Positions 11,673-28,672 of a DNA stretch of 64,000 nt are shown here, one piece after another; within the stretch, counting starts at the first letter, position 1, and each line of letters begins with the position of its first letter. Under the pieces are notes generated by a model. That model was not told where the DNA came from and did no database searches. It saw nothing but the letters and a program-made list of their open reading frames with translations. The translations under genes and the position numbers were made by a program. Location of the stretch: IMG/VR virus record IMGVR_UViG_3300037042_003932, positions 32,001 to 96,000 of that record; one strand, 5' to 3'. Origin of the DNA: a virus.

Positions 11673-14600
11673 ACAATGTGCTAAGATATGGCCTCTAATC
11701 AAAGCAGAAGACTGGGTAAAGTTCGCAAAAGAGGCCGGTAGACCTGATCTCAGATTTACCGCGACGTCCCCAACATCCGTTCTCGGTTTGTGCCCTACAC
11801 CGGCACATGCTGAGACTAATCCGTCATTTACTATCAACGGTACTGACGGAATCTGTGGTTGCTTTGGATGTAAGTGGTCAACGACAAATCCCATAGTCCT
11901 TTACTCCGTAATCACACAGAAGACTATTCCTGAGAGTTTCTCGGACCTGCACGCGAAGTATCGGCTCACTTTCTTACCAAAAGATTACGGTGAACAGTTA
12001 GAAGCACAGCGGCTCAACTCAGCAATGAAGAGAGCCGCTGAAGCTATCTTCCATGATGAGCTTTGCCAAGCGATTGCATGCGATTGCACGGGAGAATACG
12101 AGTACGCTCGGAAGGCTGTGGACTGGCTCATCACGGAGCGCCAGATAAATAAAGATGTCATCCCGTCTCTCCCGATTGGAATCTTTCCAACTATCGCTCA
12201 GCTTAGTAAGAAGTTAACAGCCAGGTTCATACAGAGAGCTGCTCTCGAGAACGAGACTAACCCGTCTACAGTAATAACTACCGAGAAACTAGAAGACCAC
12301 GCAGGAACTGCAGTCACGTATTTCTCTGACTTCTCTCGCGCAGGAGTTAACGACAAGTTCATCGGTGCTCCGGTATTTACGCTGTACAATTCGCCACATA
12401 ACATCGGGCGATTCAAGATGCGTTTACCTGAGAAGGGTCACACGCATGTGATGCCCGATGACCCCTTTGAGGAGATCCCTGGGGTTTATGGGTTAGGGTG
12501 GGACCAATACAAAGCTTGTTGGGACCCAAAGGCAAAAACCCAAGCGGCGTATGCTGTCGAAGGAGAGATGGACTGTTTATCTCTCATGGCGCATATGGCT
12601 GAGACTGGTAACATCTGGGGTCCCGTTGTCAGCTTAGGTGGCACAGGAACAATCGAGGGCTCAGAAGAATCTCTAATACGTAGTCAGGTCACGGACGTCT
12701 ATTTTATCGGAGACGCTCCAAACAAAGGCGGGGACGAGAAGACCAGCTCCAGCGGAGACGTAGCAGTTACTAAGTGGCTATCTGTTTACTCAAAGATTCG
12801 TTCCTACGTTTTTAGCCACGAGGCTTGGGAAAAGTTAGCACCAGCTGATGACCCGGATAACGCAATGCACCTTGATTGCGTAGGACCGGACAAGACGTTT
12901 CTCGAGCTGTATACAAACCGAACGGAGAATTACCAACCCTCAGGGCATTGGCTCTTCGAAAAGGCGTACGACAAGCTCGAGAAATTAGACCCCACAGACT
13001 ACCGAGGACTAACTGAAATAGCAGTTGAGGTCGGTAGGGTACTGCTGAACCTACTAGACAGAGAAGCGTATGTTCAAAGTATCTGTGAGGCATTCCCCAC
13101 ACTAAAGCCTGACCCGTTAAAGCGAGCTCTCACTAGCAGCCTCGTGTCTGAAGAAGCGTTCATCATGCGCTTCAAAGAGGCAATTGAAGCCCTCATGTTC
13201 GTAGTAGGTACTGACAGTGCTAACGCTGATCGGAGGTTACTGTGTGTCGGTCGACAGAAAAATACAGTCTACTCGTTCAAGTTGGACAGCCCCACTTCTG
13301 CAGTAAAAGAACTCGCTACTATCTCGGGTGGTATCGCTAGGTTCATTGACGACCACGTTGGTTGGCCTTCCTTCGTACCAAACCCAAGCACCAAAGAAGG
13401 TGATGGGTGTATGGAGTCCATAGATAAGACGCTGAGATTCTATGCTAACGAGGCCGTTATGCGTGCTGCAGTAGGTGTTCCTGATCTCAAAGACCATGAC
13501 TTATTACGGCAGGGGTATCACTGTATAAGAGACTCATACGGGAATGTGAAAGGGGAGTACGTTGTTGACGGTGGAAGTATTCATAAGATCGTATCTAGGG
13601 ATCATAGCGGGGCACACTGGAACCTGCTAGATGGTCCACGAGATGAAAACATCATATTCGATACGGGGTACACGCACAGAACAATCGAGGAGCCATGGTA
13701 CCCTGGTGGCTTGGACGTTGACACGCTGGAGAAGGGTAACGACGTAGACCTATTAAGGCTGTATAACGACCTCGTAGCAGTTTTCACAGACGGTTTCTTC
13801 TTTAAGAATCACGACGTCGTTCCGAAAATGTTGGGAGCTATGCTCATGGTGCTAGCTGTCAACAACTGCTTCCCTCGACAAATCATGGCGTCAGTCACAG
13901 GTGAGACAAGTTCTGGGAAATCTTCTTTCTTATCTACGTTAAGCAATATAGGTGGCGCTAAATCCATGAGGCTCCTTCTTTGCTCAGTGGGATTCGACGG
14001 ATTCTCCGAAGCAGGTATCAGTGCTCATATCGACAACTCACGAAAGGCTCTGTGCCTAGACGAGGCTGAGTCTGATGAAGGTACTCGTAGGTCTGAAGCT
14101 GTTGGTATGATCAATGAGTTGTTCCGGAGTTGCGTGTCTGGTGAGGGTGCGCGTATCCGTTCTTCGAATAACGGCACTTCAGACGTGAGTATACGTAAGA
14201 TATTTTGTCCGGTGATTTACAGCGGAATTAGTGGGGTGCACAAGGCTCAAGACATGAATCGTATGATCATGATTGAGACCAAAAGAGTCGAGGGCCGCGA
14301 TAATGTGAAGAACATTATCCATGCCAAATATGGTGAAGATTTTGCTCCAGATATCGCGAAGAGACTTGCTGTTGGGATGTACCGTCACGTTCCAGCCTTA
14401 ATGGAGAGCTACGCCAAGATCGAGCGGTTATACCCCACGTTCCACACATTCGTAGGAACCAAGATAGAGTATAGATACGCCTCGGGCCTGTTTGGTATGT
14501 TAGCGGTCCTAGACGTAATCGGCCTCAATTGGAAAGAGTTCTTAACTGATTTCGTGACGTCTAATACCGAGGCTATCGACCGTGCTACCAAGTACTCAGA

Positions 14601-19792: not shown

Positions 19793-19821
19793 AACATAGG
19801 AAATGAGTACGGAAATGTCAA
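19793..19821 (-). promoter_or_regulatory. Candidate sigma70-type promoter for terminase, overlapping the MoxR start
   Basis: Minus strand TTGACA (19821-19816), 17 bp spacer, TATGTT (19798-19793), then 7 nt to the ATG at 19785. Confidence 0.6.
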
Positions 19822-21050
19822 ACAAGAAAGAAGTTATCCATTACGCAGACCAGTATGATATCCCGCGTGTGAGCCCCCAAGAAGCGATTGACCAGATCAA
19901 ACTCTCTATTGCAAACAGTCAGTTTCGTGGAGTGTTCAACCTCGTTGGACAGTCTGGCATCGGCAAAACCCACATTATTCGTCAAATAGCCCAAGACATG
20001 AACCTGTCAAGAGTAGCGGACGTACGTACAGCCCATTTCTCTATCCTGGGTGGCGGTGTTCCGAAACTCCAAGGAGACAACGACAGGTTCTTCAGCATCC
20101 TGCTCCCGCCCCAATTCCCCGATACAGACGAGTCGGCTTTGATCTTCTTCGACGAAATCAACCAGGGGATGCAACATGCCATCAGCATGTTCTTCTCTTT
20201 GATCGAAGATCGGAGCCTGTACGACTACGAGCTCGGGGACAAAGTGACAATCGTCGCAGCAATGAATCCCAACACAGCGAATTACGTCGTACAGAATATC
20301 GAGTCGAACGCGGCTCTGCGCCGACGTTTGAAGTTTCTGTACGTGGTATCCAACGCCAAAGATTTCCTGGCCCACGCCTCTACTTCGAGGTTCCACTTCA
20401 CCGACACAGCATGTCGTGCGATTGGCTCGTCATCGAAACCCTGCCACCCCGCAGTCCTGGAGTTCCTGAAGGGGTCTCCAAGCCTAGTCGAAGATTCCAA
20501 GGCGCGAGAGCAGAACAAGCAGTACGCGTGCCCTGCGTCGTGGCAGACGGTGAGCCTCGACGCCTACGTCATGGACTACAGTCAAATTCCACTGGATAGT
20601 GACGTGGCGCGGGTTCGGTTCGGGTCATCCATCGGCATGACCATGGCCCAGCAGCTTGTCGGGTTTTTCCACGACAGATCAGCAACCCTGAGTGCAGAGG
20701 ACGTCATCCTGCACTTCCCCAGTGTCCAAAGTAAACTAGAGAAACTTGTCGAGAATGGTGCCCTGGAGAAACTCGTCAGCCTCACAGGCGACGTCTTGGA
20801 GTACATCTTCATTAGTGAACCAAAAGAAGTGAGTCGCGTAGCCAAGAATCTCATCCGGTATCTTATGGTCGTCCCCAATGACGCCAGTATCTCAGCCATG
20901 CAACAAATACCAATAATCGCACAGCAAAACAAAGCAGGGGTATACCTAACGCAGCTCATGAAGGAGTTACGAAATCACCAAGAGTTCGTGACGTTGAACC
21001 AACGTCTCGAAACAGCACACGCATCCATTGACTCAAAACTCAGGGCTTAA
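19803..21050 (+). CDS. MoxR-like AAA+ ATPase
   Basis: GQSGIGKT Walker A, IFFDEIN Walker B, IVAAMNP sensor I, AALRRR arginine finger. Confidence 0.88.
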   Translation: MSTEMSNKKEVIHYADQYDIPRVSPQEAIDQIKLSIANSQFRGVFNLVGQSGIGKTHIIRQIAQDMNLSRVADVRTAHFSILGGGVPKLQGDNDRFFSILLPPQFPDTDESALIFFDEINQGMQHAISMFFSLIEDRSLYDYELGDKVTIVAAMNPNTANYVVQNIESNAALRRRLKFLYVVSNAKDFLAHASTSRFHFTDTACRAIGSSSKPCHPAVLEFLKGSPSLVEDSKAREQNKQYACPASWQTVSLDAYVMDYSQIPLDSDVARVRFGSSIGMTMAQQLVGFFHDRSATLSAEDVILHFPSVQSKLEKLVENGALEKLVSLTGDVLEYIFISEPKEVSRVAKNLIRYLMVVPNDASISAMQQIPIIAQQNKAGVYLTQLMKELRNHQEFVTLNQRLETAHASIDSKLRA

Positions 21051-21744
21051 GACCTAGACGAGCTAACTCCGCATGGAGATGGCTCTTGTGTTCTGCAACG
21101 TAGAGGTAACAAGCAGCAAGACGGGCTAGTTGCACACCGACCGCATTCTCTGCGAACTCGGTGTGCGCTAGTCTGTTCTTGGGAGTATGACTCCAAGCTT
21201 GCTTTACCTCTTTTTTTAGTCCAGTGACGTATTCTTCCGAAGTGAGTTGTTTCTCCAAACAGTCTTCCGCAAACAGAAGTTCACTTGGCGGAAGCACAAA
21301 GCCTTCGCGACGGAGACAAACAGCCACGTAAAGCTGCACGTCACCATCAAAATCTGGGATGGTATCTTTGTCAGGGTCAAACTGGCGAATGACAGCGGCT
21401 TCGCAAATAGCCCAAGCCATATGCGCGGAGTGATTCTCCTGCAGCGTACCAACGCTGAAAGGTTGACCGTTCAACGCCTGCACCGTGTGCTGGAATGAGA
21501 TGTTGTCCCAGTAGAAAGACGGGTGTTCCGTGAGCGCAATAGCCGCCTGGATCTTGTCGCGGTCCACTTCACTCAAAGGGTAGCTGTCTCGCTCTAGGGT
21601 TAACCATAGAGCTTCAGGTTCCCACTTGAGGACTTCGTCCCCGTACAAAGAACGCAGCGACAGTAAGAGAGCAATAGCCGAGCTAGAAGACGCGGCTTTA
21701 AGCGTAGCTTTTGCTTCAGGTTCTAGTGCCTTGTTTTTCATCAA
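21040..21744 (-). CDS. Hypothetical protein (possibly head-associated)
   Basis: 234-aa ORF with an ATGA overlap to the upstream - strand gene. Confidence 0.6.
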   Translation of the reverse strand: MMKNKALEPEAKATLKAASSSSAIALLLSLRSLYGDEVLKWEPEALWLTLERDSYPLSEVDRDKIQAAIALTEHPSFYWDNISFQHTVQALNGQPFSVGTLQENHSAHMAWAICEAAVIRQFDPDKDTIPDFDGDVQLYVAVCLRREGFVLPPSELLFAEDCLEKQLTSEEYVTGLKKEVKQAWSHTPKNRLAHTEFAENAVGVQLARLAACYLYVAEHKSHLHAELARLGLKP

Positions 21745-22745
21745 TGCGAGTATGCCACAAGATTCGTAGCGAGGGAAGACTTGAGGTCATTCGGCAGAGT
21801 CTCAATAATCTGCTCAAGAGCAGTAGGGTCAACTTGGCCACCGGGGGCTATCTCAGACGCGAAGTCAGGGCCAATCGCGTCAGACCAAAAAGTGACAGGC
21901 AGAGACGACAACACGTTCTTGTCAAACATCTTTCCAGCGATGTTGATGCTCTGTGCCGCCAGCTTATCCGTGTTCCAAACAGTCTGGATAGGATCAAGAA
22001 TCTTCTTACCGTACAGATTCACAATGCCTGCCTGCTTGTCCAGATCATGGAGCGCTGCGGCCAACTTTACCTGGTAACCTTTGTCCGCAATATAGTCAGG
22101 AGTGTTGGTAAAAGCTTGTGCCAACTTCTCGTACGAAGCCGCGACAGGCGAATTCACCTTCAGGGCTGCTTCCTTGCGAGCGCCGAGCCAGTCACAAAGA
22201 AGCTTGGTGCTTGTGAGCGTAATGCCTGCGAACTTCTTGGTAGAAGGAGCCAACGGAACTTCGTAACGCTCAGCTACCTTAACCAGGTTGAGCATGATTT
22301 CAGAGCGTTCGGTCGGAGAAAACTCCGCGTACCGTTGTCCCACAATCTGCTCGGCAAGTTTGACGTCACCAGCGGAAGCAACGCGAAAACGGCGTTGGCT
22401 ATCCAACAGCCAGTACTCCTCACCTGCTTCTTTTTCCAACAAGCTCTCGGAGTTGAACGATGCGGTGTCTACCCCGTAGACCTCGGCAGCGCGATCCAAA
22501 TTTAACCTCACGTCCAACGGAAGGACAGAGGCAGTCTTGCTGTAAGCAAGAGAAAGAACAGCATGCTCCCGATTATGTAGGGGGAACATCCGGCGCTCTG
22601 GCCATGCAAAAGCTGACATCGGCAGGTTCGAGAACTCCTCCGAGTCGAGCTCAGCAGTCTTCGCCATCTCTTTGATGGCTGGGAACTTCTCGGAAAGGAC
22701 TCGCAGCATTGCGAAACCGGCATCAGTGGTTTGGTCGATGATCAT
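21741..22745 (-). CDS. Putative head/scaffold-associated protein with many K-x-A motifs
   Basis: LPMSAFAWPERRMFPLHNREHAVLS resembles DUF6582-type phage head modules. 11 K-x-A sites. Confidence 0.5.
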   Translation of the reverse strand: MIIDQTTDAGFAMLRVLSEKFPAIKEMAKTAELDSEEFSNLPMSAFAWPERRMFPLHNREHAVLSLAYSKTASVLPLDVRLNLDRAAEVYGVDTASFNSESLLEKEAGEEYWLLDSQRRFRVASAGDVKLAEQIVGQRYAEFSPTERSEIMLNLVKVAERYEVPLAPSTKKFAGITLTSTKLLCDWLGARKEAALKVNSPVAASYEKLAQAFTNTPDYIADKGYQVKLAAALHDLDKQAGIVNLYGKKILDPIQTVWNTDKLAAQSINIAGKMFDKNVLSSLPVTFWSDAIGPDFASEIAPGGQVDPTALEQIIETLPNDLKSSLATNLVAYSH

Positions 22746-22826
22746 TCCATTTCCTGCCTGTAAATAGTCGAACTAGTTCTAGCGACACTACTAATTGTAC
22801 GCCAAACAACCCAAAGGAGTAACTCT

Positions 22827-24464
22827 ATGGGCGAATCGAAGGACAATGCTCTCACAAACGCGCTGCAGTGGCTCTGTTCCCCTCGGGGTGGGAACAACTT
22901 CTACGGACGCATCCTTAATGGATGCCGACGTATCAGTACTCCCGGCAAAGGAACCGCTTGCGTCTCGGTAAACCTGTCCACAGGTAGGTACTCTTTCGAG
23001 TATGACCTCGAGTGGTTCGAAAAACTTAACGTCAAAGAACAGCTGTTCGTGGTCATGCATGAGGCGTGTCACATTGTGCTCCAACACATTCCTCGGGCTC
23101 TCTGGATGTACAACAATTTGCCTTCGGGTTCTGACCTGAAATTAAACCACAAGCTCAGCAACTGCGCTATGGATTTTGCAGTTAATAGCAATTTCCTCAG
23201 AAAAGAACTGGATGAATTTGGGGATAAGTGTCCCTTCCTGAATCCAGCAATGTTCGAATTGCCGCATAAGCTCATGTTCGAAGAGTACCTAGACTTGCTT
23301 ATTCAAAAAGCCAAAAAGGTTCCTATGTTCGTTATGTCGCTAGGTGACGGTGGAAGTCAACCAAGTGACCAAAACAACCACAAAGAGGACAGCGACGAAG
23401 AGAACAGCAATTCCCCTGGTGATGAAAAGAATGAAGACCAAGACGACAGCGAGTCAGACGAAGGTGACAGTAGCACGAGCGAAGACTCTGACGATACCGA
23501 GGATGATTCCGAAAATGAAAATGGCGGAGGTGGGGGCGCGGGTGATCCAGGAGAGGAAGAGGAAACTAACGGAAGTAGTCAAGGAGATGGTCTTGGCGAT
23601 TTACACCCCGAGTTCCCTCGACACACATTCGACCCGAGCGAAACGAGTCTGACCCGCACTGATGCTGAGATGGAAAGACTCATAAGCGAGCTGACCAAAG
23701 AAACTAAAGAGATGGTCAGGCACGCATACGAGCAAACTATCCGACGCAGGGGAACTATCCCGGTAGAAATCAGAAGTGAAGTAGAAGCACTTTTGAAAGA
23801 ACCAGAAGTTCCGTGGGACCAAATTCTCAGAAACATGATGCGGTCTAGCATCATAGCCAAGATGTACGAGAGTGCTGTTATTCCTAATTACAGCCTTCTG
23901 CCTGTAATGGGTATGGGTATCATTCCGTATCCGGGTCTTCAGTGTGACACTGCAATCAACGTGTCTATTCTCATCGACACCTCAGGCTCTATCAGTGACT
24001 CAGACTTTATAAAGTTCGTGACTGAGCTCAACGGAGTTCTACAGTGCACCCATGGGATAAACATGCACGTCGTCATGTTCGACGCGTATATCCAGTACGA
24101 ACACTACCTGAGCGAGCTGGAGGCCGATGAGCTACGAACCGAGATGAAAGCAGGTAAGGCGTCATACGACAGGCACGGACGCGGAGGAACAGACTTTAAC
24201 CCGCCGTTCCAGTGTGTTAGTGGCGTCGATAGAGACACAATCCCCCGGATAGACAACTGCGCGGGTAACTGGGAGGAACACCGATTCAAGAAACCAGACT
24301 TGGTCGTGTTCCTGACAGACGGTTGCGCCCCTGTAGACGAGGAGTCCGGAGGACCAATCCCCGTGTACCAACCAGACTGCCCAGTAATCTGGGTCATCTG
24401 TGGCGGCAGTAGAGCCGAGGTACACCCAGCCATGGGACAACGTGTCGTTGTCCTCTCGGAGTAA
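22827..24464 (+). CDS. HEXXH metallopeptidase-like + vWA protein (DUF2201-type), MoxR partner
   Basis: MHEACH, NCAMDFAVN, a long D/E/S/G linker, MIDAS IDTSGSI, GRGGTDF, FLTDG, PVIWV. AAGGAG RBS. Confidence 0.88.
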   Translation: MGESKDNALTNALQWLCSPRGGNNFYGRILNGCRRISTPGKGTACVSVNLSTGRYSFEYDLEWFEKLNVKEQLFVVMHEACHIVLQHIPRALWMYNNLPSGSDLKLNHKLSNCAMDFAVNSNFLRKELDEFGDKCPFLNPAMFELPHKLMFEEYLDLLIQKAKKVPMFVMSLGDGGSQPSDQNNHKEDSDEENSNSPGDEKNEDQDDSESDEGDSSTSEDSDDTEDDSENENGGGGGAGDPGEEEETNGSSQGDGLGDLHPEFPRHTFDPSETSLTRTDAEMERLISELTKETKEMVRHAYEQTIRRRGTIPVEIRSEVEALLKEPEVPWDQILRNMMRSSIIAKMYESAVIPNYSLLPVMGMGIIPYPGLQCDTAINVSILIDTSGSISDSDFIKFVTELNGVLQCTHGINMHVVMFDAYIQYEHYLSELEADELRTEMKAGKASYDRHGRGGTDFNPPFQCVSGVDRDTIPRIDNCAGNWEEHRFKKPDLVVFLTDGCAPVDEESGGPIPVYQPDCPVIWVICGGSRAEVHPAMGQRVVVLSE

Positions 24465-24466
24465 GC

Positions 24467-25153
24467 ATGACGACATACCCATTTTACTCGGTAAAGGTAC
24501 GACACAGCACCGGTAAGATGCCCAGTACTGACACACGAAAGGCTCGTCACTTCGAGAAGGCTCGAACGAGTTTTTTCCAATACGACAGGTTCTACCTGTT
24601 TCACAACGATGACATTGGCTTCGTGAACAGAATGTTCAACGTGTACATGTTGCATACAATTACCCCAGAAATCCTCGGATACCTGAATGACATGCTAGAC
24701 ATAGAGATGGTCACGTCGTTGGGCCATACGAAACTGACACGAAAAGTGTCTACAAAAATCGAACGAGGACAACAACAAGCAAGTGTCCCATGGCATGTTG
24801 GGAGGTCTAAGATCGAGAACTACATGCTCGTAGTCCCCACGTACACGTTTAACCTGAAGTTCTCAACTAGACAGAAGCATGCGGAACTGCCAGATGGACG
24901 TGCCATCGGGTACGTACGATCAAAAGTTACTGTCGGTTCCGTAATCTTCAAAGACGCACCTTTGCTTGTAATCAACGAGCGGGTCATTCCAAATCCTTGC
25001 ATGTTCTGTGCGCGGTATCTTGACGGGTTCCAAGCGGGAATTTGCAATTTTGGAACCAGGGTTTGTCATAAGACAAACACAATATTTGCACCACTAGAAA
25101 GGAAAACGATCCAAGATGACGATGTTCCTACGGACGGAGTTATTGAAGTATGA
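24467..25153 (+). CDS. Hypothetical protein with C-terminal Cys cluster (RT-operon gene 2)
   Basis: Starts 2 nt after the vWA stop. CMFC-x11-C-x6-CH. Overlaps the RT start by 38 nt. Confidence 0.65.
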   Translation: MTTYPFYSVKVRHSTGKMPSTDTRKARHFEKARTSFFQYDRFYLFHNDDIGFVNRMFNVYMLHTITPEILGYLNDMLDIEMVTSLGHTKLTRKVSTKIERGQQQASVPWHVGRSKIENYMLVVPTYTFNLKFSTRQKHAELPDGRAIGYVRSKVTVGSVIFKDAPLLVINERVIPNPCMFCARYLDGFQAGICNFGTRVCHKTNTIFAPLERKTIQDDDVPTDGVIEV

Positions 25154-26285
25154 TGTGAATCCTCTCTTGGAGGCAGACGAAGACCTCGCGCTTATCATCG
25201 ACGACTACACCCTAGCAAACTGTCTACGCACGACCGCACACCTTCTATGGAACGCGGTTATCAACCGAAACGGTATGTACACAACGTTCAGCATACCCAA
25301 GAAGACCGGGGGTGAACGAACCATACGAGCGCCGCGTCCGTACCTGAAAAGACTACAAGCTCGGATGTACAAAAAAATACTAACTCCGCTACACAACAGA
25401 CTAGGAGACCACGTCACAGGATATAGATCAGGATTTGGGACAAAAGCAGCCGTATCGCTACACGTTCATCCATGCGAAATATGTGACAGTGCCCCTGAAG
25501 GAACAACCGCTACGTCACATGCGTGTCCCCGCAACGGAACGTATATAAAGCTCGACCTCAAAGACTTCTTCCATACCACACGTAAATGGTGGATCGAAGA
25601 CTATCTAGTCTCTGTAGGGTACGGAAGTTACGTCTCAGATTTGATGGCTGTAATCATGACTGTTCCAGGGTTACCGCACCCAAAGAAACCAGACGCAAAA
25701 GTTACAGGGGTACCCCAGGGGAGTCCGACCTCTGGAGCCATCTGTAACCTAGTAGCTGCTCAACGCCTAGACAAGCCCATTATGGATCACCTACGCTACC
25801 TAAACGTGATGCATAAGCTCGATACTACCTGGGGTTGGAGATACTCGAGGTATGCCGACGACATCGCAATCACCTGCGGAAAAAAGATGCATCACAGCGT
25901 TCGCAGAGACGTAATCGGCCAGGTCAAGAAGATAATCTGGAGGGCAGGTTACACCGTAAACGCCAAGAAGACGAAGGTCAAAACAGGTCGAAAACAACGG
26001 AAGCTACTGGGCCTGGTGTTCAACCAGAAGCCCAACATCGACAGACGTGACTACCTGCGACTAAGGGCCATCGTATTCAACTGCTCGATGCATGGCTTTG
26101 ACTCACAGGGCCAACGTGCAGGTTACGAGAACGCTGCGCAATTCAAGTCATGGCTCCAAGGGAAAATTAACTACGTAAAGCACATTCACCCAAGTCATGG
26201 ATTGAAGCTCCAAGAGGTGCTCGAGAGCGCTATAAAGATGCACAATCCAGAATGGACAGAAATAGTCAATGAAGAAATTAACTGA
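25116..26285 (+). CDS. Retron-like reverse transcriptase
   Basis: FSIPKKTGGERTIRAP, LKRLQ, KLDLKDFF, PQGSPTSGAICN, YSRYADDI (YADD at 25851-25862), GYTVNAKKT, LLGLVFN, RLRAIVFN, LQGKINYV. Confidence 0.92.
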   Translation: MTMFLRTELLKYDVNPLLEADEDLALIIDDYTLANCLRTTAHLLWNAVINRNGMYTTFSIPKKTGGERTIRAPRPYLKRLQARMYKKILTPLHNRLGDHVTGYRSGFGTKAAVSLHVHPCEICDSAPEGTTATSHACPRNGTYIKLDLKDFFHTTRKWWIEDYLVSVGYGSYVSDLMAVIMTVPGLPHPKKPDAKVTGVPQGSPTSGAICNLVAAQRLDKPIMDHLRYLNVMHKLDTTWGWRYSRYADDIAITCGKKMHHSVRRDVIGQVKKIIWRAGYTVNAKKTKVKTGRKQRKLLGLVFNQKPNIDRRDYLRLRAIVFNCSMHGFDSQGQRAGYENAAQFKSWLQGKINYVKHIHPSHGLKLQEVLESAIKMHNPEWTEIVNEEIN

Positions 26286-27675
26286 CACAAAGATCTTCAC
26301 GGCCATTATGTGCGAGTACAGGTTCAGGACAAAGGAGGGATTCGACGCAGGAGACGATTACCCCAAGTACTCACGCGACGACGGCTGGTGCGTGAAAGAT
26401 TCTTGGGGTCTTGTGTTCGGCACGTACTCACCGAACGTCCCTGAGGTAAATGACTACACCGCAAAAGATGCGATGGAGCTCGCCGACGACCCAGAACTCC
26501 ACAAGATATTCCCTCCCCCATTCTACGTAGCGTCCCTGGACGACAGCGCCAACCGGACAATGTTGTACTTCGGAAGACACGCAGCTAAGTTTGTATCCTC
26601 GTGGGTACAACAACCAGGTGAGTACCCTCTGGACTTCTTGGTCATTAAGCCCTCCGTCGACGAGCCTGCATTCAACGTGGATACCATGTCTCAAGTGGCG
26701 AGATGCCACGCTCCAGAAAAACACGTATACGGGTGTAAGGCGTGCTTAGAGAGCGCCACGAGCTTTGAGGGTTGCTGCAGTATCAAACGCACGTTATGCC
26801 CTACAGAAGACCCCTTAGAGTTCAAATCTAAGTGGAGCGTTGGACCGTTTCTCCCGTCTAGAAAGCACACCATCCAGGGTTATTTGTATGTGTCACCCGT
26901 CATGCTACACGACAACGATTCTCGCAAGATCGTGGGGGTAAAAGATATCAAGCTAACTGATCTGGATTTCAGTCAGTATCAGGAACTGTATGACCGACGC
27001 TGTGAGTCTCTAAAAGAGAGACAGAAAACTCTCGAAAATGGAAGAGTGTACTGCTCACAGTGCTCGGTGCGAGACGAGTGCTTCAATCACTTCAAACACA
27101 AGAGACGTTTCTGCTGCAATCCACGCCCTAGTGTAGAGCAGATAGCCTCTGAGATTACAAACGCAGCCGTTATCAAACTATCGAAAAGGACCATCGCTGA
27201 GATCTTAGAAGCTAGTGGGCGTACGCGAGCACAGAATCCAAGAACTGGAAGGACAAGTGAGGCTACGATAGGTCTTGCGGACCTTAACAGGGGTCTGGGT
27301 TTCTGTGTTCACCGTGTATCTGACAACTACATAATGGTGAGTGGTAGTACCGACGAGGAATGGGAAAGGTTCAAACAAGCTGAGTCTATTACCTGTTATG
27401 AGGCAGGTGTAGAAAATCTTCTTCGTACCTTAGACGACCCCGTGAAGTTTGCAACCCTCTTATCCTGCGTAAGCACACGCCAGTCACCTGCTCGAGCTAC
27501 CGGTTTTGGAAACTTTCACTACGAGTACATGTACACACATGTACGGTACGGTGACGAATTCAGTATAGCGTTCCACCAACCGAGCGGAAGAAGAGTATCC
27601 CCGTGGAAACTAGAAGTTAAGTCCCTCCCCTGCCTATTCAAGCACTACGGAAGAATCCCGGGGTCTACGTGGTAG
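26269..27675 (+). CDS. Cys-rich hypothetical protein (RT-operon gene 4)
   Basis: 468 aa, overlapping the RT stop by 17 nt. Motifs CH...CKAC...CC...C and CSQCSVRDEC...CC. Confidence 0.7.
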   Translation: MKKLTDTKIFTAIMCEYRFRTKEGFDAGDDYPKYSRDDGWCVKDSWGLVFGTYSPNVPEVNDYTAKDAMELADDPELHKIFPPPFYVASLDDSANRTMLYFGRHAAKFVSSWVQQPGEYPLDFLVIKPSVDEPAFNVDTMSQVARCHAPEKHVYGCKACLESATSFEGCCSIKRTLCPTEDPLEFKSKWSVGPFLPSRKHTIQGYLYVSPVMLHDNDSRKIVGVKDIKLTDLDFSQYQELYDRRCESLKERQKTLENGRVYCSQCSVRDECFNHFKHKRRFCCNPRPSVEQIASEITNAAVIKLSKRTIAEILEASGRTRAQNPRTGRTSEATIGLADLNRGLGFCVHRVSDNYIMVSGSTDEEWERFKQAESITCYEAGVENLLRTLDDPVKFATLLSCVSTRQSPARATGFGNFHYEYMYTHVRYGDEFSIAFHQPSGRRVSPWKLEVKSLPCLFKHYGRIPGSTW

Positions 27676-28672
27676 GAACGAAGTCCGGACAGATGGCGAG
27701 AGCCGCAGCTAGCGCTGCGTCTTCTGCAGCCTGGGCCGAAGCGACCTCTGCTTCGGCCTCTTTTTTTGCTATCACAGCAGAAGACACCGCGAGGTTCTTG
27801 ACCGTAGTGAGCTGAAGCGCAGAGTTATACGACGTGAACAACGAGGTGTACAACGTATCCAACGTTGACGTTAGGTTGGTTGCGTTACTCTCAGTATTCG
27901 CAAACGACGCGAGGTTTGTTTCTTGCCCCGCAAAGGCTGCTGACAGCGCAGGGTAACGCGGCTCAGTGTTACCCACGTACGTCAGCATCTCCGCAACAGG
28001 AACCTGGTACGTCTTTGTCAGACCTGCAAAAGCCTGACCGCCAGACACCGTCTTTATCGAATTGAAATAGTTTGTCCAGAAGCTCTTAACGTCAACAGCT
28101 AGAGCGTACTGTTCCTTGTATTTCTCGGTGATTGTCGTCTGGTAGTTAGCCGCGTCTCTCGCGTCCGCTAAGTCTTTCTCAGCCTCCACCAGAGCGAGAT
28201 CCGCTGCGACTCGTTCAGCCCGTGCCGCATAGTACGCATCCTGTAGCTGCTGCTCGTAGGTTTCATCCTCGGTAGGATGCCAACCATCCAAATTGCCTGA
28301 GAAGACTTCCTTAAAATCGTACCAAGCACGAACACCGTCGTTGACGCGAGACTTAACCGCGTCTTTAGCTTGAACCGCCATATTAAGGTCAGCGTACTTA
28401 CGTGTGAGAACACTCGTCAGGTAGTAAGAGTTACCGGCAGTCAGAGCCACTTCACGTCCGTTTGAGATGTTCTCCAAGTCATATGGAGTAGCCACACGCT
28501 CGAACACATCTTGTGTCGTGTCCACCACGTCCGTAATCTTGTACACGAACAAAGATGTGGTTGGTAACTCACCCTGCTCAGACACCAACGCCGTGATGAT
28601 GTACTGGAAGTCCCCTTCTTCAAGGGCCACCGTTGTGTAGTTGTACTCTACTTTTGTTAGTGCTGCTGTCAT
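27665..28672 (-). CDS. Hypothetical virion-associated protein with coiled-coil C-terminus
   Basis: FERVATPYDLE domain followed by an Ala/Glu-rich helical region. Confidence 0.6.
   Translation of the reverse strand: MTAALTKVEYNYTTVALEEGDFQYIITALVSEQGELPTTSLFVYKITDVVDTTQDVFERVATPYDLENISNGREVALTAGNSYYLTSVLTRKYADLNMAVQAKDAVKSRVNDGVRAWYDFKEVFSGNLDGWHPTEDETYEQQLQDAYYAARAERVAADLALVEAEKDLADARDAANYQTTITEKYKEQYALAVDVKSFWTNYFNSIKTVSGGQAFAGLTKTYQVPVAEMLTYVGNTEPRYPALSAAFAGQETNLASFANTESNATNLTSTLDTLYTSLFTSYNSALQLTTVKNLAVSSAVIAKKEAEAEVASAQAAEDAALAAALAICPDFVPTT

Follow-up and report, generated by a model that had tools for sequence, protein, structure and literature searches.

The reverse transcriptase (RT) gene of this phage was found to belong to a long-standing syntenic cassette, in which an RT of the retron type is encoded together with new partner proteins and without a template RNA in cis. 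By definition, a retron combines an RT with a non-coding RNA (ncRNA) contiguous with it, and retrons are viewed as defences of bacteria against phages. Elsewhere in the same genomes, we found structured modules resembling the msr-msd RNAs of retrons, and these were present in all RT-positive genomes compared. Our tentative reading, to which we give a little short of an even chance, is that the cassette represents a phage variant of a retron whose templates are supplied in trans by these distant modules.

The RT gene is part of a tightly packed operon in an uncultured phage lineage

The window, i.e., the whole stretch of 64,000 nucleotides analyzed, comprises bases 32001 to 96000 of a 143,878-bp IMG/VR virus record with an estimated completeness of 80% (here labelled G000). 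Its genes include those for a large terminase, a family A DNA polymerase, a primase-like protein, a class II ribonucleotide reductase and large structural proteins, and no tRNA genes were found in the 64-kb window. The closest terminase among GenBank phages was only 27% identical, and the phage has no near cultured relatives. The carriers of the cassette appear to form an uncultured lineage of phages of roughly 140 to 200 kb, apparently of the lytic type.

Hundreds of relatives of the RT family were found in metagenomes; when viral contigs were scanned with single proteins (RT and ORF228), no match was obtained. For comparison, 43 syntenic IMG/VR loci (28 to 46% RT identity) and 33 metagenome loci were used; 6 of the latter were full length at 60 to 80% RT identity, and the closest RT homologues (60 to 87%) came from a single metagenome scan. 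Gene junctions were analyzed in about 57 non-redundant related loci. The lineage was also sampled independently of the RT, using the neighboring gene rev334 as bait (61 evaluable loci), and a genome-wide comparison was made of 15 genomes, nine RT-positive genomes serving as positive controls and six RT-negative ones, two of which were complete with terminal repeats.

Table 1. Features of the RT locus and the distant module array. Positions refer to the window, except for the last row, which is given in coordinates of the full record (G000).
Feature	Position	Strand	Remarks
MoxR-like AAA+ ATPase	19803-21050	+	Pfam AAA_5, PHROG 1297; neighbor of the cassette, not a member
Divergent intergenic region, 81 bp	22746-22826		Between rev334 (-) and the + strand operon; palindrome GAACTAGTTC at 22770-22779
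DUF2201 protein (N-terminal putative metallopeptidase domain and VWA-like domain)	22827-24464	+	First gene of the coupled operon
ORF228	24467-25153	+	First gene of the three-gene RT cassette
Hairpin GGTTCCAA (25026-25033) / TTGGAACC (25050-25057)	25026-25057	+	Inside the codons of the conserved Cys cluster
Reverse transcriptase, 389 aa	25116-26285	+	Pfam RVT_1, 2.9e-20
ORF468	26269-27675	+	Last gene of the cassette
Intrinsic-terminator-like stem and T-run	27733-27759	+	11 pairs (7 G-C), then CTTTTTTT; just 3' of ORF468
Three tandem modules	G000:117579-117988		About 21.6 kb past the window end, about 59 kb downstream of the RT gene

The first-pass annotation, made from the sequence of the window, described the RT gene as overlapped on both sides by long open reading frames, and all of its coordinates were correct: the DUF2201 gene and ORF228 are separated by 2 nt, ORF228 overlaps the RT gene by 38 nt, and the RT gene overlaps ORF468 by 17 nt (Table 1). 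It had further named the 81-bp divergent region as the sole non-coding DNA near the operon, and both this gap and its palindrome were verified, with GAACTAGTTC being found once against a chance expectation of 0.06. The gap probably serves as a promoter or in regulation; an RNA module of the distant type described below would not fit into its length, and module-like structure was absent from it. At the other end, the terminator-like stem marks the probable end of the operon. This stem falls within the 3' end of a convergent open reading frame on the minus strand (27665-28672), and either the true end of that frame differs or the terminator is embedded in it.

Retron ncRNAs usually sit in non-coding DNA just upstream of the RT gene or the operon. 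In the approximately 57 loci, the upstream frame ended between -146 and +12 nt from the RT start, commonly with an ATGA-type overlap of 1 or 4 nt; one locus was exceptional at +69, where our script probably chose the wrong RT frame. A frame of 166 to 274 aa lay on the plus strand between the DUF2201 gene and the RT gene, abutting or overlapping the RT start, in nearly all of these loci, and a frame of 420 to 560 aa followed 3' of the RT gene with the same tight packing in almost every related locus. The lack of room for an msr-msd at the RT gene, which the annotation had pointed out for this one genome, is thus a feature of the lineage, and in none of the approximately 57 loci was an msr-msd found contiguous with the RT gene.

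The cassette is surrounded by replication and nucleotide-metabolism genes. The DUF2201 gene (Pfam PF13203, 1.4e-14; PF09967, 5.7e-14; PHROG 1314) was syntenic in every RT-positive locus. Together with the MoxR-like ATPase gene, it flanks two reverse-strand genes (19803-24464) and leads into the cassette. The cassette may form a metal-dependent complex for which the MoxR/VWA pair serves as a metallochaperone or maturation factor, an idea prompted by the position of the cassette next to this pair and by the conserved Cys clusters in all three cassette proteins.

ORF228 and ORF468 are conserved cysteine-rich proteins

The first-pass annotation had considered that the 228-aa frame might be spurious and hide a canonical msr-msd in 24467-25116. 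This proved not to be the case: in 49 aligned homologues, the frame stays open at only 13 to 25% identity, and the family shares the motifs FP.D..YL and VVP as well as four invariant cysteines (C178, C181, C193 and C200). An AlphaFold2 (AF2) model built on the family alignment was of mixed alpha/beta type with a mean pLDDT of 80. Given the conserved frame, the shared motifs, the invariant cysteines and the confident model, we conclude that ORF228 is a real protein gene. The gene call in the ESM Atlas starts ORF228 at residue 18, leaving out the first 17 residues (window 24467-24517). Since these residues are conserved in homologues (YSVKV motif), and relatives have a GGAGG ribosome-binding site before the start codon that corresponds to the longer frame, the start at 24467 is preferred.

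ORF468 carries two conserved Cys4 clusters, with C146, C156, C159, C170, C265, C271 and C282 invariant and C262 conserved in at least 90% of homologues, and its AF2 model (mean pLDDT 88) consists of beta-rich domains and one long helix. The cysteine patterns of the two proteins are CxxCx11Cx6C, Cx9CxxCx10C and CxxCx5Cx10C. Neither protein matched Pfam, PHROG or PADLOC (E ≤ 0.01 for Pfam and PADLOC), except for a weak match of ORF468 to REase_II (E 0.0014), and structure searches with both (Foldseek against the PDB, VIA-align wide and ESM Atlas) gave no usable match, the best scores for ORF468 being a Foldseek E-value of 0.15 and a VIA Z of 3.8.

The RT belongs to the retron clade, yet several defining features are altered

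In PADLOC, the best 25 of 66 RT matches were all to retron RT models, with RT_XIII at the top (1.1e-56, 191 bits; next model 161 bits) and no UG/Abi/DRT RT model among these 25. Sequence matches in the PDB were likewise nearly all to retron RTs (Ec67, Ec86 and Ec78). The nearest cellular homologues (27 to 31% identity) are type XIII retron RTs scoring 520 to 675 bits on RT_XIII, compared to 146 to 191 bits for three members of the phage clade, and the phage RT leaves roughly the first 110 to 115 positions of this profile unmatched.

The catalytic YADD motif is intact in the phage RT. The VTG triplet of the thumb region is replaced by LLG, which aligned to V-T-G of Ec67 and of which L298 and G299 are invariant in the family, and the NAxxH position reads AVSLH (residues 112-116), with A112 nearly invariant and H116 invariant. 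The placement of AVSLH is our own reading, since the HMMER alignment to Ec67 is loose across an insertion of roughly 20 residues. This insertion contains H116, C120, C123, H135 and C137, all invariant in the lineage. It maps to window positions 25461-25526 (RT residues 116-137), between the NAxxH-equivalent motif and motif 3, and reads H-x3-C-x2-C ... H-x-C. Judged from its sequence, it looks like a zinc knuckle, which is absent from the retron RTs aligned. By sequence, then, the protein is a retron-clade RT with type XIII as its nearest relative, yet it departs from several of the features by which retrons are currently defined.

ORF228, the RT and ORF468 are gained or lost as one cassette

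Among the 61 evaluable loci of the rev334-based sample, the RT gene was present in 46 and absent in 15, and the notion that it is a strict core gene of the lineage was therefore dropped. Even so, the cassette is at a fixed position in most members of the lineage. In the six RT-negative genomes, the genes for the RT, ORF228 and ORF468 were all missing genome-wide, whereas the MoxR/DUF2201 pair was kept in one RT-negative clade and lost in the other: the MoxR-like ATPase gene was retained in G047 and lost in G049, and the DUF2201 gene occurs without the RT in the G047 clade. As the three genes disappear together while the MoxR/DUF2201 pair varies separately, ORF228, RT and ORF468 form one functional cassette.

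No conserved template RNA was detected within or beside the operon

A template embedded in coding sequence was among the options raised in the first-pass annotation, which had suggested a covariance and synonymous-site analysis of the ORF228 region. This analysis was run on seven close relatives and revealed no conserved RNA structure. Codon identity at identical residues was close to the background of 0.42 to 0.44, rising only in the 20 codons at the start and the 25 codons at the end of ORF228 and in a short stretch of the RT gene, and no 100-nt block of synonymous-site conservation was found in the operon. At the ends of ORF228, the raised stretches fall where genes join, where the ribosome-binding site lies and where ORF228 and the RT gene overlap. 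With RNAalifold, the halves of ORF228 reached consensus energies of only -2.3 and -0.3 kcal/mol over the seven relatives. The region as such folds slightly better than shuffled sequences (z = -2.8, 20 shuffles). The hairpin at 25026-25057, described as modest at first pass, is present in this genome, but was not conserved in the seven relatives. The module descriptor introduced below, applied to 60 RT operons (283 kb), gave 4 matches at scattered positions compared to 3 in shuffles, and Rfam at its gathering threshold detected no family in the window.

Modules with msr-msd-like topology are found at distant sites

As described in PMC7736814, retron ncRNAs share a topology in which the terminal repeats a1 and a2 enclose short msr hairpins and one long msd hairpin, with two G residues facing each other. 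A search of the rest of the genome for a1/a2-type inverted repeats, which the first-pass annotation had proposed, did recover such elements, beginning with the three tandem modules of G000 (Table 1). These are 123 to 127 nt long (for the second module, only the inner 15 bp of its 24-bp stem are counted), with closing stems of 12 to 24 bp (7 to 24 bp over all modules) and folding z-scores of -4.0 to -6.1. Each module starts with the 5' arm, a G, a linker of about 15 to 25 nt (sometimes with a small hairpin) and a conserved triloop hairpin of 7 to 8 bp (AG-UAA-CU type), and ends with a variable region, often a long hairpin, followed by (C)UCAG or AAAG and the 3' arm, with a G directly before this arm. 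In searches that did not require a G at these positions, every long-armed module still had one after the 5' arm and one before the 3' arm.

Modules of the same architecture were found at the syntenic site in G001, G003, G007, G011, G025 and G039, with the neighboring 206-aa and 112-aa genes as anchors of synteny; a 198-aa gene on the upstream flank of the array is not conserved. Further arrays or clusters were present in G012, G017, G032 and G034, and dispersed copies with long msd-like hairpins and terminators of their own in G011 and G001.

An alignment of eight modules showed pairing in 99.2% of cells, with compensatory changes in 13 of the 15 pairs and seven G-U cells compared to a single non-pair; when partner columns were slid by one to three positions, pairing dropped to only 26 to 49%. 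Covariation in the closing stems is inflated by ascertainment, since the modules were found partly through their complementary arms, and that in the module hairpin is more independent evidence. The G-U pairs, along with T-run terminators on the same strand after the last module, indicate that the modules are RNAs read in the direction of the flanking genes.

The covariance models R1 (three modules) and R2 (eight modules) recovered only their training copies, even with filters off, being too specific because of the variable middle region, and the family was therefore defined by a Python descriptor of our own with shuffle controls. Searching the distant modules against Rfam with cmscan in E-value mode gave only a chance match to sR28 (E 0.92), and two motif-pattern scans of viral contigs gave only single chance matches, none of which was confirmed by R1. 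A reading of the modules as MITEs or other transposons was rejected, because copies within one genome have arms that differ in sequence and are still self-complementary, which argues for selection on structure and not for shared terminal repeats.

Several individual elements were also noted. At G011:88701-88855 (+) and G011:27334-27526 (-), dispersed modules occur singly, each with a long msd-like hairpin and with AUUCAG preceding the 3' arm; the former is followed by its own intrinsic terminator and lies in the interval that separates the DNA polymerase gene from the terminase gene, at a distance of 7 kb from the RT gene. In G001, a non-coding gap of 490 nt adjoining a module (13122-13350, -) contains a very large perfect hairpin at 13399-13586, whose arms of about 50 bp are separated by 86 nt and which could be an origin or a terminator. 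Near the end of the G000 record (142985-143140), direct repeats GGTG(N)TTGGGTGTTTG surround a structured stretch with CCCTCAG, which may be a terminal or packaging-related sequence or another element.

Modules and RT co-occur across genomes of the lineage

One fixed module descriptor was applied to the 15 genomes, requiring arms of at least 8 bp in a first pass and of at least 7 bp in a second. In the first pass, RT-positive genomes contained 2 to 10 non-coding elements (0.2 to 2.0 in shuffles), compared to 0 to 1 in RT-negative genomes (0 to 0.8 in shuffles). Tandem sets were found in the second pass in 8/9 RT-positive genomes and 1/6 RT-negative genomes, and the ninth RT-positive genome, G011, had three dispersed modules and no tandem set. 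Modules were thus present in all nine RT-positive genomes, and five of the six RT-negative genomes were at chance level. The exception, G052 (RT-negative, 84% complete), has a module-like pair on the minus strand near the end of its record (152437-152703), which is either a relic, evidence against a dependence on the RT, or a chance occurrence.

In trees of TerL and rev334, the RT-negative genomes formed two well-supported clades. The presence of the RT requires one to two changes on these trees, so that the co-distribution amounts to only one or two independent contrasts and may reflect mere clade membership. Read with this in mind, it is suggestive, and fits a functional link between the RT and the modules.

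A possible retron variant with templates in trans

A template encoded in trans was another option listed in the first-pass annotation. It is supported by the a1/a2-type modules at distant sites of the genome; from their anatomy, conservation and co-distribution with the RT, we infer their use by the enzyme, the production of msDNA and a purpose for it. In the mechanism that we propose, the RT, perhaps with its two Cys-rich partners, would bind the conserved module hairpin, synthesis would be primed from the 2'-OH of the G following the 5' arm, and the variable 3' hairpin would be copied, each module yielding its own kind of small single-stranded DNA. This DNA might serve in counter-defence, in superinfection exclusion or the exclusion of rival phages, or in replication or recombination. 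A fuller version, which we hold with somewhat less confidence than the general reading, is that of a split retron, in which one cassette with two novel, putatively metal-binding partners and 3 to about 9 unlinked, differing modules per genome would make several small single-stranded DNAs during infection for a function on the side of the phage. If the link between RT and modules is true, this would be a natural retron acting in trans on several templates, and phages would have gained a retron-based function of their own. Speaking against templates in trans, nothing physically ties the RT to the modules, the two signature motifs with a presumed role in initiation have changed (to AVSLH and LLG), and no described retron with unlinked or tandem ncRNAs was found in the literature searched.

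The same altered motifs count in favor of a reading in which the RT uses no dedicated structured ncRNA at all. Here, synthesis would be protein-primed or template-independent, or another RNA would be copied, in the manner of AbiK, DRT4 or DRT9, with the Cys-rich partners as primer or effector and the modules as an unrelated RNA family. We consider this unlikely, although it is the strongest of the alternatives. The failure to find an ncRNA in cis, the module-like pair of G052 in a genome without the RT and the one or two events behind the co-distribution all agree with it, and retron RT clades 4 to 6 are likewise without an ncRNA found (Mestre et al. 2020, PMC7736814). However, the best 25 of the 66 PADLOC matches were to retron RTs and not to UG/Abi or DRT enzymes, and RNAs with the topology of retron ncRNAs are present and enriched in RT-positive genomes. 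Should the link to the modules fail, the cassette would present a retron-clade RT working without a recognisable ncRNA, which would bear on the retron RT clades for which none has been found.

It is improbable that the template comes from the host, either as a host retron ncRNA or as another host RNA, with the phage RT hijacking or interfering with the retron defence of the host. Such a scenario would account for the lack of a template in cis, and phages are reported to counter retrons (bioRxiv 10.1101/2023.03.15.532788), but the cassette stays intact at RT identities as low as 28%, presumably in many different hosts, which argues for a self-contained system. An ncRNA hidden in the coding DNA of 24467-25116 or its vicinity was rejected and retains only a very slight chance, since the synonymous-site, alignment-folding and descriptor tests were all null, and the protein is conserved with its Cys4 motif. 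The points in its favor are the slightly better folding than in shuffles and the raised synonymous identity at both ends of ORF228, the latter being at the positions of gene junctions, ribosome-binding site and RT overlap.

Comparison of the phage cassette with known RT systems

Type XIII retrons correspond to RT clade 10 of Mestre et al. 2020 (PMC7736814), where one partner protein has a winged helix, a zinc finger of the SWIM type (CxCx12CxH) and a DEDE motif. Another partner of type XIII retrons is a HEAT/ARM-like helical repeat protein. The phage cassette resembles this type in that RT_XIII was the best RT model and bona fide type XIII RTs were the nearest cellular homologues, and in having three genes, including two for accessory proteins, one of them zinc-binding (putatively so in the phage cassette). 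It differs in the much lower RT scores (146 to 191 compared to 520 to 675 bits) and the missing N-terminal part of the profile (about 110 aa). Apart from the weak REase_II match, the phage partners had no match in PADLOC, which may hold no models of type XIII partners; their Cys patterns differ from the SWIM pattern, although they may be distant homologues, and their predicted AF2 structures do not resemble helical repeats. Also in contrast to type XIII, the ncRNA is not contiguous with the RT gene, and the carrier is a large phage and not a bacterial chromosome.

With canonical retrons (Ec86/Eco1 and Ec67), the phage system shares a retron-like RT core with YADD, and the distant modules share the a1/a2 stem, the opposing G residues and the combination of short msr-like and long msd-like hairpins. 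Unlike in these retrons, the candidate ncRNA is unlinked (at a distance of tens of kb), multi-copy and often in tandem, and the RT is without NAxxH and VTG and has the extra Cys/His insertion.

UG/Abi and DRT RTs (AbiK, DRT2, DRT4 and DRT9) are reported to be stand-alone enzymes, of which some lack a structured template next to them and some work without a template or from a protein primer. In contrast to these, the phage RT groups with retrons, and UG/Abi/DRT RTs are bacterial defence genes and not phage genes at a fixed site.

In engineered retron editors, the RT and the ncRNA are expressed separately, which would show that a retron RT can work on an ncRNA provided in trans. Those systems are artificial, whereas the separation in the phage would be natural, with several different templates per genome; if the link between RT and modules is true, a compact RT with interchangeable short templates would offer a starting point for the production of DNA in cells.
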